Assembly (NCBI GenBank): GCA_963843555.1 | Contig: CAWJKV010000005.1 | Coordinates: 160,001 to 224,000, forward strand | DNA: 64,000 nt | Direction: 5' to 3' | From: an uncultured Methanosarcinales archaeon | GTDB taxonomy: Archaea; Halobacteriota; Methanosarcinia; Methanotrichales; Methanotrichaceae | In this document: positions 6,078-53,892 of the stretch, piece after piece | Layout of the letters: each line of letters starts with the position of its first letter | How positions within the stretch are numbered: the stretch's first letter is position 1 | Notes under the pieces: generated by a model | The model's database searches: none | What the model saw: the letters and a program-made list of their open reading frames with translations, nothing else | What the model was told of the DNA's origin: nothing | Program-made: the position numbers and the translations under genes

Positions 6078-7013
6078 ATGTTCAGATTTGATAGGAAGCA
6101 GGAAGTCTTCGATTTCGGTAAATTCAAGATAGGAGGCCAGCCGGGCGAGTACGCCACATGCTGCATCGGCACCATGTTCTACGCCAGGCACAAGATCGTC
6201 TCCGATCCGGAGCATGGAGTCTTTGATGCGGCAGCTGCCGAGAGACTCTGGAATGCACAGGTTGAGATGAGCGATGTCACAGGCAACTCCTGTATGAACC
6301 AGATAGTGGCCGAGAGCAACGAGGCCATGAAGAAGGAGATCGACTGGTTTGTAGGTCTATCGGATTACCCGTTCCTCATCGACTCCTCTGCTCCTGAGGT
6401 GCGCGCCTTCGGCGTCAAGTACGCCACTGAGATCGGCGTGGCGGATAGAGCAGTGCACAACTCCATCAACGCCTCCATCACAGATGAGGAGCTGAAGGCA
6501 GTCAAAGAGAGCGATCTCAACTCAGCTATCGTGCTCGCCTTCAATGCCATGGAGAAGGGAACCAAAGGCAAGATGGATATCCTGACCAAGGCTGCCGGCG
6601 GCGCCAAGAAGGGCATGCTGGAGTATGCCAAAGAGTGCGGCATCACCAGGCCGCTCATCGATACTGCCGCCATGCCTCTGGGAGCCGGCTCAGGCGCAAC
6701 CTATCGTGCCTGCATTGCCGTCAAGGCCCAGCTCGGCCTTCCGGTAGGCGGAGGATTCCATAACGGAGCCTCGGCCTGGGACTGGATGAAGAAGTGGAAG
6801 AAACAGCACAAGGAGGCCTTCGCTCCTGTCGATATCGGCTCCAACCTGGTGGCCGGAATCGTGGGTGCTGACTACTACCTCTACGGGCCCATAGAGAACG
6901 CCCCCATGATCTTCCCGGCAGCAGCCATGGTGGATATCATGAAGGCAGAGTCCGCAGAAGAGCTGGGACTGGAAGTTCTGGCTGAGAAGCATCCCCGGAA
7001 GACGACCCTTTAG
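6078..7013 (+). CDS. mtrH: Mtr subunit H (methyltransferase)
   Basis: MFRFDRKQEVFDFGKFKIGGQPGEY..GTMFY; LYGPIENA. Confidence 0.97.
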   Translation: MFRFDRKQEVFDFGKFKIGGQPGEYATCCIGTMFYARHKIVSDPEHGVFDAAAAERLWNAQVEMSDVTGNSCMNQIVAESNEAMKKEIDWFVGLSDYPFLIDSSAPEVRAFGVKYATEIGVADRAVHNSINASITDEELKAVKESDLNSAIVLAFNAMEKGTKGKMDILTKAAGGAKKGMLEYAKECGITRPLIDTAAMPLGAGSGATYRACIAVKAQLGLPVGGGFHNGASAWDWMKKWKKQHKEAFAPVDIGSNLVAGIVGADYYLYGPIENAPMIFPAAAMVDIMKAESAEELGLEVLAEKHPRKTTL

Positions 7014-7018
7014 GTCGC

Positions 7019-7039
7019 TTCTTTTTTTCTTTCTTTTTT
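7019..7039 (+). terminator. Oligo(T) archaeal terminator after mtrH
   Basis: TTCTTTTTTTCTTTCTTTTTT just after the mtrH stop. Confidence 0.6.
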
Positions 7040-7706
7040 GGGGGTTTTCTTGCCCCGCGTTATTGTAAAGGCCGTTTTTGAAGATATCAAATTCCAGTGC
7101 CAGAGGTGCGGCTCCTGCTGCCATCATAAAAGGCCCCTGGAGTTCGATGATCTTGTTCCCATGGATCAACTGAAAGAGTTTTGGGAGAAGTCCAATCTGA
7201 TCTACCTCACGGAAAAGGATGTCAGAGCCATTTCCGAAAAGACGGGCAAAAAGGCTGCAGATATCGTTGATACCCTTTATGACTATGACGGATGTTATGT
7301 TAAAATTATGGATAAGGGAAGCAAGGTAATCCTCGACCTGCCGGTTATGAAAAGCAAAGAGGATACTACCTGCATCTTCTACCGGGAAGGCTGCACCATC
7401 TATTCTGTGCGACCTATTGCTTGCCGGCTTTTTCCCTTCCGGGTGGAAGAAGAGACCATGCCCAATGGAGATATTCTTCTTCAAATTGACTGCAACCCCA
7501 CCTGCCCGGGCGTAGGAAAGGGAAAGAGAGTGGATAAGAGGAAGCTGGAAAAGCTGGTGGTAGATCAGTTCCTGCAAAGAACAGAGGACATAACCCCCCA
7601 TATTCAAAGGCTTAAGGCCTCAGGAGAAATCGGGGCCCAGACCAGTGTATTCAGAACTCTGCCGGGAAGGCGAGCCAAGAGATCGTCGTCTCATCAGAGT
7701 CAGTGA
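7038..7706 (+). CDS. YkgJ-family cysteine-cluster protein
   Basis: FQCQRCGSCC..CIFY..CTIYSVRPIACRLFPF..CPGVGKG; start codon uncertain. Confidence 0.85.
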   Translation: MGVFLPRVIVKAVFEDIKFQCQRCGSCCHHKRPLEFDDLVPMDQLKEFWEKSNLIYLTEKDVRAISEKTGKKAADIVDTLYDYDGCYVKIMDKGSKVILDLPVMKSKEDTTCIFYREGCTIYSVRPIACRLFPFRVEEETMPNGDILLQIDCNPTCPGVGKGKRVDKRKLEKLVVDQFLQRTEDITPHIQRLKASGEIGAQTSVFRTLPGRRAKRSSSHQSQ

Positions 7707-7848
7707 GCTTCGGTATCACTTCTTACGATCCACATTTAATTAAAAAATATATTTATTTATTCTGAACTCCTGAGGAATCAGAACCCCAAAGGGAGAGGTT
7801 CGTACTATTCAGAGCCCAGGGCTCAGATAGCTGCTTGCCGTTCAAGTT

Positions 7849-8004
7849 CTATGCCAGATGTCCAGTCAGAGCCGCAACCATGAATACGATTGCAGATATG
7901 AGGATGGTGTAAAATCCGGCATCCTCTGATGAGATTGCTCCATGAACTTCGATATCGTGCCCAACTAAGGGAGGTTCGTTGTGTATAAAGCCAGCCATAT
8001 TCAT
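7849..8004 (-). CDS. Small putative membrane protein (51 aa)
   Basis: Manual translation MNMAGFIHNEPPLVGHDIEVHGAISSEDAGFYTILISAIVFMVAALTGHLA; C-terminal TM helix; below ORF-track cutoff. Confidence 0.5.
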   Translation of the reverse strand: MNMAGFIHNEPPLVGHDIEVHGAISSEDAGFYTILISAIVFMVAALTGHLA

Positions 8005-8359
8005 TTCCTATACAGCAGACCTCGCCGATTTCTGAAGATCGCCGTACAAAACTCTATGAGATGCATTCCATTATTTAACCTTTCCCAATAATGATCGATT
8101 TTTTCGATTAAAAATTGACTCAATAGATGAATTGATCTCAATGTTCTCCCTTTAATGCCAAAAAAATTTTTGGCAATTTGGTTTTTTTGTTAAATACCTT
8201 TTTTACCAAAAAAACCAAACAAAAGGCGCTAGAAGAATGGCGAGAACGGGGGCAGCCAAGCTGTCGGCGAGAAATGTAATGATCAGCAAAAAGTTTATCA
8301 TGGTCGAGGTCTAATGGGCGCCTTGGCTAATCTTTCCAATTCCCCGGAGGTGAAAAGAG

Positions 8360-8473
8360 ATGGATATCATGTCTCAGATATACGCTATTATAATATTTGG
8401 CATACTAGTCGTAGCCCTGCCTACGATCCTGAACAAGTGGTCGGATAAGAGGTCGGGAGTAAGGCAGTCTTAA
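8360..8473 (+). CDS. Small putative membrane protein (37 aa)
   Basis: MDIMSQIYAIIIFGILVVALPTILNKWSDKRSGVRQS, preceded by GGAGGTGA RBS; TM helix then basic tail. Confidence 0.6.
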   Translation: MDIMSQIYAIIIFGILVVALPTILNKWSDKRSGVRQS

Positions 8474-8725
8474 TAAAGTTTTCTTTTCCAGTCCTGGCCA
8501 AGCCAGGACTGCTATTACTTACTTTTCTTCGAGTTCCAGGCCAACTAATTCGCAGCTGTTTTTCCTGAATGCTCGGCATGTTGCCAGACACTTCTTTGAC
8601 AATCCAGCCGCAGCCCTGGCGCTGATGCAAAAATAAATGCTGAATTGGCCCTACAGCTGGCAAATCTTCCATAGCTTTTAATACTGATAAAGGCAAACCA
8701 AAAGACAAAAAGGCACGGCGAGCAA

Positions 8726-9175
8726 ATGCCCAGCGTCAAATATACCAGAATAGAAATAACCCAAGAGGCATACATGGCTTTAGAGGCGGAAGCCATCCTA
8801 CAAGGGAAGACCTTGAAGAAGCTCGCGTCGGAAATGATAATGAAAGGGGCTTCCAAAAAGGCTCTAAATTTTGTCCAGGAATCTACCATTTCAATCGAAG
8901 CCAACTTGAATTTTAGCAGAGATAGACTATCAAAAGTGATAAACGATATCGGAACAACAAAGATGAACATCGACGAGAGCGTTATGGAGAACGTCCAACA
9001 GAGCCTGGTTGATGAGGGATATCAAGGTGCAATGTTGTATGTGGCTCAACATACGGCATCGATGCAAAGGGATGAGCTCTTTCGGATATTGACAACCTGT
9101 CAACTCAATAGAGTGCCTTCAGCGATGGCTGTGGATATCATTAAGAGTTTGAGGAGAATGCAAGGCGGCAAATGA
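8726..9175 (+). CDS. Hypothetical protein: RHH-like N-terminus fused to a helical domain paralogous to 52184..52462
   Basis: YTRIEITQEAYMALEAEAILQGKTLKKLASEMI fits a strand-helix-helix pattern; C-terminal 82 aa align without gaps to the 52184 protein. Confidence 0.75.
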   Translation: MPSVKYTRIEITQEAYMALEAEAILQGKTLKKLASEMIMKGASKKALNFVQESTISIEANLNFSRDRLSKVINDIGTTKMNIDESVMENVQQSLVDEGYQGAMLYVAQHTASMQRDELFRILTTCQLNRVPSAMAVDIIKSLRRMQGGK

Positions 9176-9380
9176 GCATTATATAAGTGCATCCTGAAAA
9201 AGGGATTATCGTCTTGGTCTATACCAAATTGTTCTCGGAGTTTCAATCCGCTCCAAGATATCATGTGGCCACAAGAAATCCCTATGGATATAGGCTCCGC
9301 AAACTATTTCTATCAAAGTTTTTATACGCAGAAGACCATATTCAGCATCGAAGAGAATACCGCATGCAAGATAAAATGGA

Positions 9381-9707
9381 GTGATCATCTTGAAGAAAGA
9401 AGAATTCTTGGAGCAGATTGAGGGCTTCCTGCTTCCCGAGGTGTTTGATCAGAATCTTCTCGATCATGCTGCAGAGATGTTCGGGAAATGGGGAAAAAGT
9501 ACGCATATGGACGAGAAGGAGCATCTCTTCGAGAGCTTTGGCCTAACCTCCAAACCGGAAGACAGCAATGATCTGAAGAAGCAGAAGACAGCCCTGCGCT
9601 TTGTCTGCACGAAGATGATGGAATCCAATCTCAACCGGGAGGATGCCGTAGATCTCATCCGGAATTTCAATAAGTTCAAAGACCCTGGCTACGAATGGCT
9701 GGAATAA
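9381..9707 (+). CDS. Hypothetical helical protein, possible distant paralogue of the 8726/52184 domain
   Basis: 108-aa ORF; KQKTALRFVCTKMMESNLNREDAVDLIRNF aligns with MQRDELFRILTTCQLNRVPSAMAVDIIKSL. Confidence 0.7.
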   Translation: MIILKKEEFLEQIEGFLLPEVFDQNLLDHAAEMFGKWGKSTHMDEKEHLFESFGLTSKPEDSNDLKKQKTALRFVCTKMMESNLNREDAVDLIRNFNKFKDPGYEWLE

Positions 9708-9827
9708 TTAAGAGAGGGTATTTGGCCGCGGCTGGCGACGGGTCCGCGACGCGTCTGCCTCTCCAACTGGTGCGACCGGCCCAAAGCCAAGGCTCATGAA
9801 GCCTTCTGCCCGGGCGCTCTCTCTCAG

Positions 9828-10400
9828 TCATTCTTTGAGTTTCTTCATCAGCCATCCCATATTCTGGCCCAGGACCTTCATGGTCTGCATTCCTTCCGGA
9901 TCTCGTTCCACATCCTTCTCCGCGAGTCCCATGCCAATATTCCAGTAGCTTGAGCCTGGAATTATCATCTGGTTGATCAGGAAGAAGTGATTGATGGAAT
10001 CGAAGACATGAATCGCCCCCGCCCTGCGGACGGCTACCACAGCCGCGCCCACCTTGCGCTTGAACATATCCCCGTTGGCTTTGCCCACAAATCCCGAGCG
10101 GTCAATGAGGGCCTTGAGCTCCGGGGTGAGGTCGCTGAAGTAGGTGGGCGAGCCCAGGATAATTCCATCCGCCTGGGCCATTTTCTCTATGCAATCGTTT
10201 ATGATGTCTTTATCCAGGGCGCACTTGCCGTCCTTACTCTCATGACACTTAAAGCAAGCGATGCAGCCCGAAATAGGCCCTTTCAGATGAACCAGTTCCG
10301 TCTCCATTCCCTGGCCCTCCAGCTCCATAAGAGCTTCACGAAGGAGGGTGGCGGTATTTCCGTCCCTGCGAGGACTGCCATTAAATGCAACAACTTTCAT
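9828..10400 (-). CDS. Iron-sulfur flavoprotein / flavodoxin-family FMN reductase
   Basis: [40 protein letters not shown]. Confidence 0.9.
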
Positions 10401-50288: not shown

Positions 50289-50912
50289 GCTCTCACCTTC
50301 TGCACAAACGAGTTGATCTTGACCGGATCCTTTCTGCCCGCAGACTCCGTGCCGCTGGAGACATCCACGGCATAGGGCCTCACCCGCTTTATGGCCTGGG
50401 CCACATTGCCCGAATCAAGGCCCCCGGCCAAAATAACCGGAACCTTGAGAGATCTGACGATCTCGGCGCTCTTATCCCAGTCGTGGACTCTTCCCGTTCC
50501 GCCCAGCTTTCCATCGACCATGCTATCCAGAAGAATGGAATCAGCTGCCATTTGGTAGCTCTTGGCCTCTCCGCCTCCGTCATCGACTGGCACGGCTGCC
50601 ACCAGCTTCTGGTGAACCCGGCCCTTCAGCTCCGCCAGTTCACGGGGTGCCAGTGAGCCGTGCAATTGGAGTACATCCGCCCCGGTCTGCTCGGCCAGTC
50701 GCACCGCATCATTGACGTTCTTCGGGCTGATCACTGCCACGCTCTTGGTGTACACCGGCACGCTGCGGATGAGATCTGCTGCTTCCTTCGCAGAGAGGCA
50801 GTGCCGGGAGTCCTCGATCTCCACCACAAAGCCCACAGCATCCGCTCCTGCCTGGACGGCATAAGTCGAGATCGTCCCTGCTCATAATTCCGCATACCTT
50901 GATTCTGGTCAT
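50270..50912 (-). pseudogene. trpF: Phosphoribosylanthranilate isomerase, one +1 frameshift near 50863
   Basis: MTRIKVCGI / AVQAGADAVGF, QLHG, GGTG..DW, LAGGL, VDVSSGTE. Confidence 0.9.
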
Positions 50913-51934
50913 AAGAATCTCACCAGCTTGCCATAGTCGCCGTTCATCTCCACCATTTTATGTAACAGTTCCAGGGCCCTTCCTGTGTCTATAGCTTCCT
51001 CCGCTATCCTCGCTCCCTCTTTGATGCCCGGGGCTCCGCCGGAGATATAGACGGCTGCTCCGCTGTTTATGGCGATGATATCCCTCGCAGGGGATCTCTC
51101 GCCCTTCATCACCGCCACCAGGCGTCGGGCATTGTCTTCAGGTGTGCCTCCCGTGAGATCCTCTTGCCTGGCCAGAGGATAGCCCAGATCCTGGGGCATG
51201 ATGCTGTAGCTCTTTACAACCCCCTCCTTCAGCTCCGCAATCCTGGTCTCGCCGGTATTGGTGATCTCATCCATGCCATTTCCGTGCACCACCAGAGCCC
51301 GATCTGTGCCCAGCATCAGGAAGACTGAGGCCAGCTTCTCACAGAGGCCTGGATCGTAGACGCCCATCACCTGGGCCGTTGCTCCCGCCGGGTTGGTGAG
51401 CGGCCCCAGTATATTGAAAACGGTGCGCAGCCCCAGCTCGCGTCGGATGGGTGCCACCCTCTTCATGGCGGGATGAAAGACGGGAGCCAGCATAAATCCG
51501 ATTCCCAGACGCTCGATCATGGCGGTCACCGCTTCCGGAGCGGGACTGATGTTGATGCCCAGTTCCGATAGAACGTTGGCGCTGCCGCACTTCGAACTTA
51601 CGGCATAGTTGCCGTGCTTGGCCACAGGTACTCCGCAGGCGGCGGCGACAATGGCTGCAGCGGTGCTCACATTGATGGTATTGGTGGCATCCCCGCCCGT
51701 GCCACAGGTGTCCACCAGGGTGCCATTTACGCGAGGATGGATGCGAACTGCAGAGTCGCGCATCTTTTTAGCCAGACCTGCGATCTCAGATACGGATTCG
51801 CCCTTCAATCGCAGGGCAATGAGCAGAGCTCCAATCTGGGCATCTGTCGCTTTATTGAAGATCTCATCCATGAGGGACTCAGCCTCCTCCACGGAGAGGT
51901 CACGCCCTTCCACGATCTCTTGCAGATAAGTCAA
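50909..51934 (-). CDS. trpD: Anthranilate phosphoribosyltransferase
   Basis: DTCGTGGD, NVST, KHGN, FHPAMK, FNILGPLTNP, GMDE; TTG start. Confidence 0.96.
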   Translation of the reverse strand: MTYLQEIVEGRDLSVEEAESLMDEIFNKATDAQIGALLIALRLKGESVSEIAGLAKKMRDSAVRIHPRVNGTLVDTCGTGGDATNTINVSTAAAIVAAACGVPVAKHGNYAVSSKCGSANVLSELGINISPAPEAVTAMIERLGIGFMLAPVFHPAMKRVAPIRRELGLRTVFNILGPLTNPAGATAQVMGVYDPGLCEKLASVFLMLGTDRALVVHGNGMDEITNTGETRIAELKEGVVKSYSIMPQDLGYPLARQEDLTGGTPEDNARRLVAVMKGERSPARDIIAINSGAAVYISGGAPGIKEGARIAEEAIDTGRALELLHKMVEMNGDYGKLVRFL

Positions 51935-52183: not shown

Positions 52184-52462
52184 CTACCACTTGCCGGACT
52201 CTATGACAGGAAGCTTGTCCAGTACCTGCGCAATTGCCTCCGGGCTAAGATTGTACTTCCGGCAGATCTTGAACACGCGAGAGAGTTCGGTGTTCTGATC
52301 GGTTCCTGATAGCTGGGCAGCATGGATCTCTGCAGCATCCAGGCCTTTTTCCAGCACAATCTTCCTGACATCCTTCAGCACACCACTGGTGATACAGCTC
52401 TCAGTCATGCCGATCTCTTCAATCGCCTTTCCCATATTTTCCATGTCTTTTGGATTCATCAT
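52184..52462 (-). CDS. Small helical hypothetical protein, paralogous to the C-terminal domain of 8726
   Basis: ~92 aa; 20/82 ungapped identities to the 8726 protein by hand count. Confidence 0.75.
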   Translation of the reverse strand: MMNPKDMENMGKAIEEIGMTESCITSGVLKDVRKIVLEKGLDAAEIHAAQLSGTDQNTELSRVFKICRKYNLSPEAIAQVLDKLPVIESGKW

Positions 52463-52932
52463 AATTCCAACACCTAACAATTCAAAGATGCAAGTATATA
52501 GGTTTGGATATGTTAAATATCTTTTGAAGGGAAGATCCTAAACAAGATAAGAAAAAAATGATAAATCCAAAGCCTTCATCAGAGTCAAATGATGGCGGCA
52601 TACCAATGACAACAGAGCTGCACGGTCTTTCGGATAAATAAAGCGAAAAAATCAGCTTGAATCGAAGAGCAGATCAAATCGGATCAGATCAATTCGAGAA
52701 GATCAACTCGCAGGCCTCTTTCGGCCCCTATCCTTGCTTAGGCGCCCGCAAGGTCCATTTTCCCTTTTTTTGGGATTTCCCTCATCCAGATCGGATATCT
52801 CTTCATCAAGATCAGATAAGTCTGCTCCGCACATCGCGATGTGCTTTTTTGTGCTACTATAAATAAGCAAGGAAGGGCAAGGGCATTTTGGCACCGCAAA
52901 ACCTATTATCCCAGGGATAATTCAAACTACAC

Positions 52933-53892
52933 ATGGCGAATCTCAATGTAGCGATCCTGGGTGCTCCAGATTTCGGAAAAGATCTGGGAAAGAAGGGCAC
53001 TGTCAGCGATCTTACCTTTTACAATCTGAAAAAGGGGCAGAACACAGTCACCTTCATAGAGCCGACCAGATTTCCAGAACGGATCGCGCCTCTCTTTTAC
53101 GCTGTTTCCATGTCTCAAAAGGCCCTGTTGATTGTGGATCAGATCAATCCCGCCTTTGGCGAGTCGGTCATCATGCTGGATTCACTCGGCCAAAAAGAGG
53201 GAATTGTGATCTTAAGAAACTATATCACCCGCGAGCAGATCGCACCCCTCACCAAGGGCACTGTGGTTGATGGCTACGAATTTCTGGCAGATGACAAGAA
53301 CGCCCTCCGTGAGAGGCTTCTGGAGGATGCGGCCAGGATGCAGACCACCTACGACTCCGTGACCGGAACCATGCCCGTGGATCACTTTTTCAACGTGCGC
53401 GGAATTGGAACTGTAGCCCTGGGGTCGGTCGCCGAAGGCACCATAAGAAAGCATGACGAACTGAGGGTTTTGCCGGGCGAGAAAACTGCCCAGGTCCGGT
53501 CCATTCAGAAGCATGATGAGGACTCTGACATCGCAGGAGTGGGCGAGAGGACAGGCATCGCCCTCAAGGGAGTGGATGTGGAAGATCTGGACAGGGGAAC
53601 CATTCTCACCAATGACAAGTCCATCAAGCAGATCTCCTCTCTGACGGCCAAGGTGCAGATAGTCAAATACTGGCCGTCTCCGTTAAAAGAAGGAATGGTG
53701 TTACACATCGGCCATTGGATGCAATTCGTTCCGGCCAGGGTGGAAGCAGTCATTGCCGAAAGCGACTGGCATAAGGCGGAATTGACCATAAAACTGGATA
53801 AGATGCTGGTCTACCGGCCTGGAACAAGGGCGGTCCTGACCTATCCCGAGGGGGGGAAGCTCAGAGTGGTGGGAACTATAGATCTGCCCTGA
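52933..53892 (+). CDS. Archaeal SelB-like EF-Tu paralogue (aSelBL)
   Basis: LGKKGTVSDLTFYN degenerate G-domain; domain II VDHFFNVRGIGTVALG..VRSIQKHD..GERTGIALKG..LDRG. Confidence 0.85.
   Translation: MANLNVAILGAPDFGKDLGKKGTVSDLTFYNLKKGQNTVTFIEPTRFPERIAPLFYAVSMSQKALLIVDQINPAFGESVIMLDSLGQKEGIVILRNYITREQIAPLTKGTVVDGYEFLADDKNALRERLLEDAARMQTTYDSVTGTMPVDHFFNVRGIGTVALGSVAEGTIRKHDELRVLPGEKTAQVRSIQKHDEDSDIAGVGERTGIALKGVDVEDLDRGTILTNDKSIKQISSLTAKVQIVKYWPSPLKEGMVLHIGHWMQFVPARVEAVIAESDWHKAELTIKLDKMLVYRPGTRAVLTYPEGGKLRVVGTIDLP

Follow-up and report, generated by a model that had tools for sequence, protein, structure and literature searches.

Orphan proteins probably derived from the CRISPR small subunit Cas11f in Methanotrichaceae, including a ribbon-helix-helix fusion, as candidate regulators outside CRISPR immunity

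The three small open reading frames (ORFs) 8726, 9381 and 52184 are all present in a 64,000-nucleotide stretch, hereafter the window, of an uncultured Methanosarcinales archaeon (GCA_963843555.1, contig CAWJKV010000005.1). Profile comparisons indicate that their products almost certainly descend from Cas11f, the small subunit of type III-F CRISPR systems. In ORF 8726, the Cas11f-derived domain follows a ribbon-helix-helix (RHH) domain, and the sequence of this protein marks it as very likely a DNA-binding regulator. On balance, we lean towards an explanation in which these orphan proteins are regulators or interaction modules of Cas11f origin with a role outside CRISPR.

The source assembly comprises 2.68 Mb at 82% completeness, and the window corresponds to contig C5:160001-224000 of this genome (G000). 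Relatives were searched in an order sample of 105 genomes, all with one family code and taken as Methanotrichaceae, and in a wider sample of 401 genomes across the phylum. As the genomes are related, counts across them, such as those of motif occurrence and of RAMP co-occurrence, are non-independent. Pairs for dN/dS, the ratio of nonsynonymous to synonymous substitution rates, were counted only at an identity of at least 70% and a dS of 0.05-2.

Relationship to Cas11f

The last 82 residues of 8726 align without gaps to 52184 with 20 identities, as had been noticed in the original prediction made from the sequence alone. This alignment is upheld by its local score of 99, since none of 5000 shuffles exceeded 55. 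The weaker likeness proposed there for 9381 was not significant in pairwise comparison, as 11% and 42% of shuffles reach its scores, but it reappeared between family profiles (56%, E 1.1e-4, 83 columns against the 8726/52184 profile). In a scan with the 5027 models of the PADLOC library, the Cas11f model PDLC01224 matched 25 of 36 members of the 8726/52184-domain family (best E 1.8e-8) and 8 of 24 members of the 9381 family (best E 4.2e-5), and it was the only PADLOC family with more than two matching members in each. As single sequences, the product of 8726 (P0001) matched Cas11f at E 3.1e-4, and those of 9381 (P0002) and 52184 (P0003) gave no match.

Comparison by hhalign with five Cas11f sequences from III-F loci gave 94.4% (E 9e-8) for the 8726/52184 family and 64.7% (E 6e-5) for the 9381 family, which rose to 96.3% and 89.9% with 30 Cas11f representatives. 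Reversed controls stayed at about 1% or less and 160 neighbour families at 2.9% or below (best six listed). Two metagenomic proteins, P0165 and P0172, were left out of these comparisons, since both came from the search with the orphan profile. They have 81-82 amino acids (aa), lie on contigs of less than 900 bp and are intermediate between Cas11f and the orphans: they match the PADLOC Cas11f model at E 3e-10 and 6e-9 and keep GYGAAK, are acidic and lack the N-x-x-G motif.

The similarity is full-length and colinear over 83-89 columns. Cas11f (e.g. P0190 = Ferp_0290) and the orphans share a size of about 90 aa, a colinear predicted four-helix layout, a conserved glycine after helix 2 and the hydrophobic pattern, with profile-profile values of 90-96%. 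In the structure search with orphan models, nine of the top 11 rows were type III CRISPR chains, with Cmr5 as the closest solved CRISPR fold. Foldseek gave no match at E 0.001 against the PDB and viral models, and Pfam and NCBIfam gave no match to the helical domain or to 9381. The CRISPR small-subunit likeness suggested earlier is supported, with Cas11f as the nearest family. Profiles of Cmr5, Csm2 and IV-C Cas11 were not among the 10 PADLOC families or the 25 of 28 Pfam families shown, the presence of a IV-C model in the library being unchecked. The solved Cas11 folds (Cmr5, Csm2 and the Cas10 C-terminal domain) are larger (113-153 aa), are 7-11% identical to the orphans without a listed profile match, and act as filaments inside the CRISPR RNA ribonucleoprotein, according to the covered text of PMC5965380. 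The 99-aa archaeal protein SSO6904 (PDB 2kjg) ranks first and second for two independent orphan models at 5-10% identity, and no sequence link to it was found; a stray Cas11 derivative of Sulfolobales is one possible identity for it.

That small amphipathic helical bundles resemble Cas11 by chance or convergence, without descending from it, is very improbable given that two families assembled with no CRISPR sequence as query pick out a single shared model among 5027, that reversed and unrelated-family controls are far lower, and that the structure search independently points to the same superfamily.

The domain profile retrieved only 48 clusters among 1.84 billion representatives. In the phylum sample, strong matches were confined to this family (five genomes including the source genome); ten further matches were weak (E 0.0045-0.046), among them an ORF of G273 that matches a CARF-HEPN model instead. 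Scans of viral contigs with the 9381 alignment, P0001 and P0003, sensitive to close relatives only, found no relative. Because Cas11f spans several families of the phylum and the orphans are confined to one, the direction from Cas11f to the orphans would be the simpler one.

Genomic context and CRISPR loci

No cas cluster was found in the orphan neighbourhoods listed, which hold housekeeping, signalling and unknown genes; these neighbours were judged from their sequences, and not all of them were scanned. The stand-alone status assumed in the original prediction is borne out by this. True Cas11f loci show the operon cas10-cas5-cas11-cas7, which is absent at the window genes. The Cas11f model matched in 42 of the 105 genomes (best E 2.9e-7), in no case at the level of a true Cas11f.

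The combination of III-F Cas7 and Cas10 was detected in one of the 105 genomes (G046) and not in the source genome at its 82% completeness. The G046 locus (L290:7714-12735), the sole III-F locus found in the order, comprises cas10f, cas5f, a cas11f for 194 aa and cas7f, facing a Cas56g-like gene; its own Cas11f is of the longer type (E 1.2e-30). In two other III-F loci (L235:8850-9899 and L236:9120-10139), Cas5 carries Cas11f as a C-terminal fusion. The original prediction had envisaged stand-alone small subunits, one possibly a regulator of a remote effector complex, and the full-length colinear similarity to Cas11f would suit proteins that act in trans as true small subunits of a remote III-F or IV-C complex. 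However, the only genome with III-F Cas7 and Cas10 has its own Cas11f, IV-C genes not having been searched specifically, and the conserved Cas11f residues are lost from the orphans, which leaves this idea with very little probability.

Type III RAMP genes were present in 37 of the 86 genomes with a P0003 match, in nine of the 19 without, and in 46 of 105 overall. Cas1 occurred in four of five near-complete genomes tested. Orphans accompany Cas1 in the near-complete genomes G057 and G035, neither of which has a RAMP match, and G026 (one contig, 87% complete) has an orphan and no Cas1 or RAMP match. Likewise, no RAMP, Cas1 or DevR match was obtained in the source genome at its completeness of 82%. 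A repeat at C7:109800-110400, flagged by a quick CRISPR scan, was rejected as an array, as it is a near-perfect tandem repeat of about 69 bp with no unique spacers; it has a Cys-rich coding look and a few length differences of 1-2 bp.

The Cas11f origin, the RAMP genes in nearly half of the genomes and the frequent Cas1 would be compatible with proteins that still act on CRISPR immunity, be it as anti-CRISPR decoys, as dominant-negative subunits that damp type I or III complexes, or, in the case of 8726, by regulating cas operons. The lack of co-occurrence with type III genes and of cas neighbours in the neighbourhoods listed, the retention of orphans in G026 and the source genome, both without a Cas1 match, and stable positions among housekeeping genes (trp, mtr), which fit a core function, make such a role improbable. 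A function independent of a CRISPR complex is likely.

Charge and conserved residues

An isoelectric point (pI) above 8.5 was calculated for 25 of 30 Cas11f but for two of 68 orphan sequences, with medians of 9.5 and 4.7-6.2. The Cas11f columns N28, G31, G40, K/R43, G82 and K/R83 were kept in none of 14 well-aligned RHH-fused domains, and the structural Gly38 and the Leu positions in 12-14 of them. The covered text of PMC5965380 proposes that small subunits bind the target nucleic acid and form a head-to-tail stack that follows the Cas7 filament. We consider it probable that the domain of Cas11f origin mediates protein interactions instead of binding nucleic acid.

Three features weigh against this assignment, namely a pI of 8.2 for the 8726 domain, an invariant Arg, accompanied by a nearly invariant Gln, that the 8726/52184 family has as its own, and Lys or Arg at several basic Cas11f columns in 42-67% of the rows of the 9381 family. 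Together with the binding proposed for small subunits (PMC5965380, covered text), they would accord with a domain that still binds single-stranded nucleic acid, serving as an RNA- or single-stranded-DNA-sensing arm of the RHH regulator, with the stand-alone copies as small RNA-binding proteins. Set against the charge reversal at family level and the fused domains, all 14 of which have lost the Cas11f motif, this alternative is rather improbable. A complex predicted for two 8726 domains (residues 60-149) scored 0.02 against a mark of 0.42, which bears on neither the protein-interaction nor the nucleic-acid reading.

The fusion gene 8726 and its promoter

The coordinates of all features are compiled in Table 1.

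Table 1. Positions of the orphan genes, their domains and promoter elements (window positions unless a contig is named).
Feature	Position	Strand	Remark
Motif C[GA][TC]AG[TC][CT] at BRE position, directly 5' of TATA-like box TTTAATA	8670..8683	+	Promoter element of the RHH-fused gene
P0001 (8726), RHH-Cas11f-like fusion gene	8726..9175	+	149 aa; predicted transcription factor
RHH domain	8726..8875	+	Residues ~1-50
Four-helix domain, predicted Cas11f derivative	8909..9172	+	Residues ~62-149
BRE/TATA-like box of 9381	9314..9326	+	Read from sequence
P0002 (9381), stand-alone predicted Cas11f derivative	9381..9707	+	108 aa; second, deeply diverged family
Paralogues of 9381 in the source genome	C14:22292-22615; C7:147416-147736
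P0003 (52184), stand-alone predicted Cas11f derivative	52184..52462	-	92 aa; likely start ATG 52462; family of the 8726 domain
Canonical-looking BRE-TATA element CAAAAGATATTTA upstream of 52184	52512..52526	-
BRE, transcription factor B recognition element.

The RHH-like N-terminus recognised in the original prediction was recovered as a weak match to Pfam ParD (E 8e-4, under the cut-off) and in the fold rows for residues 1-49 (PutA52, NikR, NikA, Arc and AmrZ), which show the strand-helix-helix arrangement of about 45 aa. In the sequence search of solved structures, the RHH matched ParD at E 0.067 and the remaining rows were at chance level; the protein atlas returned rows for 8726 only at 0.79-0.80 and no usable match to 52184. 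The AlphaFold model of P0001 has a predicted local distance difference test (pLDDT) value of 74. Purifying selection is indicated by a median dN/dS of 0.11 for the gene (21 pairs) and 0.04 for the RHH part. P0001 matches were obtained in 96 of 105 genomes, including those in which the RHH alone matched. The earlier suggestion that one member was repurposed as a transcription factor agrees with the appearance of this fusion.

Of 58 distinct RHH-fused genes, 40 have a motif-TTTAATA element in their upstream region, 55-88 nt ahead of the start. A stricter version of the motif has its single occurrence in the source genome at the 8726 promoter (permuted-prefix controls 0-4) and is missing from 79, 48 and 6 upstream regions of the other groups. 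RHH proteins often repress their own promoters, and autoregulation is therefore the simplest reading of the motif, which we infer to be a candidate autoregulatory operator; alternatively, it may represent an atypical BRE. A shared regulon was rejected for now, because the motif is single in the source genome and stands upstream of no stand-alone gene.

Genes 8726 and 9381 lie downstream of the mtr operon and a CxxCxxCC gene and upstream of convergent FMN-reductase and DUF362 genes, and orthologous RHH-fused genes frequently sit after the mtr region. Among the neighbourhoods listed, RHH-fused members have no conserved gene downstream. The genes that flank 8726 orthologues are highly variable, resembling an insertion hotspot. 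Between the CxxCxxCC gene and 8726, about 1 kb (7707-8725) is AT-rich and without a long ORF; no RNA holder is listed for positions 7000-10400.

The BRE/TATA-like box of 9381 suggests a separate transcription unit, and a similar element, A-rich plus TTTTTATA, stands upstream of its closest orthologues (L122-L124, L132). In the fetched loci, 8726 and 9381 occur together only in three, all from the source genome, and G076, the closest relative, carries them on separate contigs. As adjacency is thus limited to the source genome and 9381 has its own TATA-like box, the dedicated partnership of the two proteins raised in the original prediction is unsupported. Weak ParD matches of the RHH and two small co-oriented genes might also call to mind a type II toxin-antitoxin pair with 8726 as ParD-like antitoxin and 9381 as toxin or partner. 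We give this next to no credence: apart from the restricted adjacency, a gap of 205 bp with its own TATA-like box separates the genes, no downstream gene is conserved among RHH-fused members, and 9381 matches no toxin family.

Stand-alone members and further families

Purifying selection also acts on the stand-alone members, with median dN/dS values of 0.11 for P0003 (eight pairs) and 0.13 for P0002 (25 pairs; model pLDDT 85); they were matched in 86 and 67 of the 105 genomes, respectively. Orthologues of 52184, mostly of 92-96 aa, usually occupy the place found in the window, between trpD (50909-51934) and a divergent gene with EF-Tu domain 2 (52933-53892), and among those listed the CAAAAGATATTTA-type BRE-TATA element recurs upstream of many. 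The divergent gene (+) encodes 319 aa with a degenerate-looking N-terminal GTPase-like region and is divergent from 52184 at most orthologous loci. Relatives of 9381 frequently precede FMN reductase and DUF362 genes. The window neighbours of the three ORFs are accordingly mtrH and the genes for the CxxCxxCC protein, FMN reductase, DUF362, trpD and the EF-Tu-domain-2 protein. With the two paralogues of 9381 on contigs C14 and C7, the source genome holds five family members.

A third orphan Cas11f-like family (L237:4087-4428, L270:1917-2222, L271:5055-5333, L272:5002-5274, L273:4887-5171 and L274:4963-5262) is strongly acidic (median pI 4.65) and was not found in the source genome; its Cas11f match is non-independent because the family was picked with the Cas11f profile. 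Five of its six loci share a region with DHH-like, PGK-like and TrkA-like genes, as judged by eye. The orphan Cas11f derivatives have expanded into at least three families. In addition, the domain was seen twice at the C-terminus of a protein of 462-464 aa (L101:7025-8419 (-) in G057 and P0130, 58% identical) with an N-terminal hydrophobic segment (signal or anchor), Gly/Thr/Ser repeats, a weak DUF11 match and, near residue 326-329, a second hydrophobic, transmembrane-like segment that precedes the Cas11f-like domain. As far as these sequences indicate, the domain is portable, occurring alone, after an RHH and after a predicted transmembrane helix.

Several further observations concern members of these families. 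The C14 paralogue of 9381 adjoins a gene for an Ala/Lys/Asp-rich repeat protein (L151:6319-6609), and a similar low-complexity tail is fused to the stand-alone orphans P0129 and P0136; the similarity of the P0129 tail beats 1000 shuffles, that of P0136 does not. In G002 and G003 (loci L055-L058, L104 and L110), there are 6-9 matches per genome, several adjoining histidine-kinase or receiver-domain genes.

Origin of the fusion

Related genomes encode RHH proteins with a winged helix-turn-helix (wHTH; Pfam HTH_24 over the cut-off), and in eight of these the RHH is identical to that of 8726 at 36-41 of 50 positions; a ninth RHH row (L285) lies directly before a separate ORF that holds the rest of the helical domain. 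The RHH-wHTH proteins (L054:11174-11590, L061-L067) combine two DNA-binding folds in about 125-138 aa, and heterodimers with 8726-type proteins through the RHH are conceivable where both occur. All seven genomes of genus g14 have an RHH match and no helical-domain match. In G057, G042, G079, G005 and G072, an RHH-wHTH gene is located 4-5 kb from a stand-alone orphan.

In a quick tree (75 rows, 110 columns), the 14 RHH-fused domains all fall to one side of a branch with an SH-aLRT of 94 and lie within the stand-alone forms; support is 100 for the 8726/52184 clade that contains them and 99 for a separate clade of the 9381 family. Deep forks are weak because of the 110 columns for 75 rows, and a single origin of all orphan families (support 41) is neither shown nor rejected.

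Discussion

According to the explanation we favour, Methanotrichaceae would have acquired a type III-F Cas11f early in their history and, after the loss of its cas partners, retained it for a cellular job outside CRISPR. The derived domain would no longer grip nucleic acid and, as we infer, would serve as a small protein-interaction module. ORF 8726 would have arisen once, when this domain took the place of the wHTH in an RHH-wHTH regulator, and its product would act as an RHH transcription factor in dimeric form, probably binding the motif before its own TATA box and repressing itself. In NikR, the C-terminal domain sets the oligomeric state or receives a partner, and that of 8726 would do likewise; stand-alone copies such as 52184 would tune 8726 in that they bind the same surface or partner. 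As an independent family member, ORF 9381 would have come to lie beside 8726 through a recent rearrangement.

A more speculative and, in our estimate, unlikely extension would derive a like-binds-like signalling module from the head-to-tail contacts of small subunits. As an archaeal analogue of death-fold adaptors, it would link a membrane-anchored receptor (L101, P0130), the RHH factor 8726 and, as free adaptors, 52184, 9381 and the third family in a regulatory network specific to acetate-consuming methanogens.

The orphans are filed here as a derivative and not as a member of Cas11f, because they would work unlike it and lack three of its defining features. Cas11f is encoded in cas10f-cas5f-cas11f-cas7f operons or fused to Cas5 and is basic. 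In the orphans, by contrast, the N-x-x-G, G-x-T-R and G-R motifs are missing, as are cas genes in the neighbourhoods listed; most of the sequences are acidic, and there are several copies, some fused to an RHH or a membrane protein. NikR, PutA52 and Arc are RHH regulators in which an effector or oligomerisation domain makes up the C-terminal part; 8726 differs from them in that its C-terminal domain is apparently Cas11-derived and has no evident ligand site.

Exaptations of CRISPR components described in section 6 of PMC8730458, in its covered part, include type IV, CRISPR-associated transposons, HRAMP, ARAMP and STAND-associated I-E. Like the orphans, they are lineage-restricted Cas derivatives outside adaptive immunity, but they keep multi-gene Cas5/Cas7 modules, whereas the orphans consist of the small subunit alone, dispersed and fused to non-Cas domains; the covered text of that section describes no lone small-subunit case. 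Solo Cas11 genes or a Cas11-RHH fusion are likewise undescribed in the covered parts of PMC8730458, PMC12669027, PMC8036902, PMC5965380 and PMC9301641. The literature searched, which did not extend to subscription papers or to external data files belonging to PMC12669027, gave no description of either.

It seems that domestication of a lone CRISPR small subunit was accompanied by its multiplication into at least three families and by fusions to a DNA-binding domain and a membrane protein. If true, this would represent a new route from an immune protein to a cellular regulator. It would give an origin and a testable function to conserved hypothetical proteins of Methanothrix-type methanogens and, for genome annotation, would mean that matches to the Cas11f profile in Methanotrichaceae genomes are not indicative of a CRISPR system.
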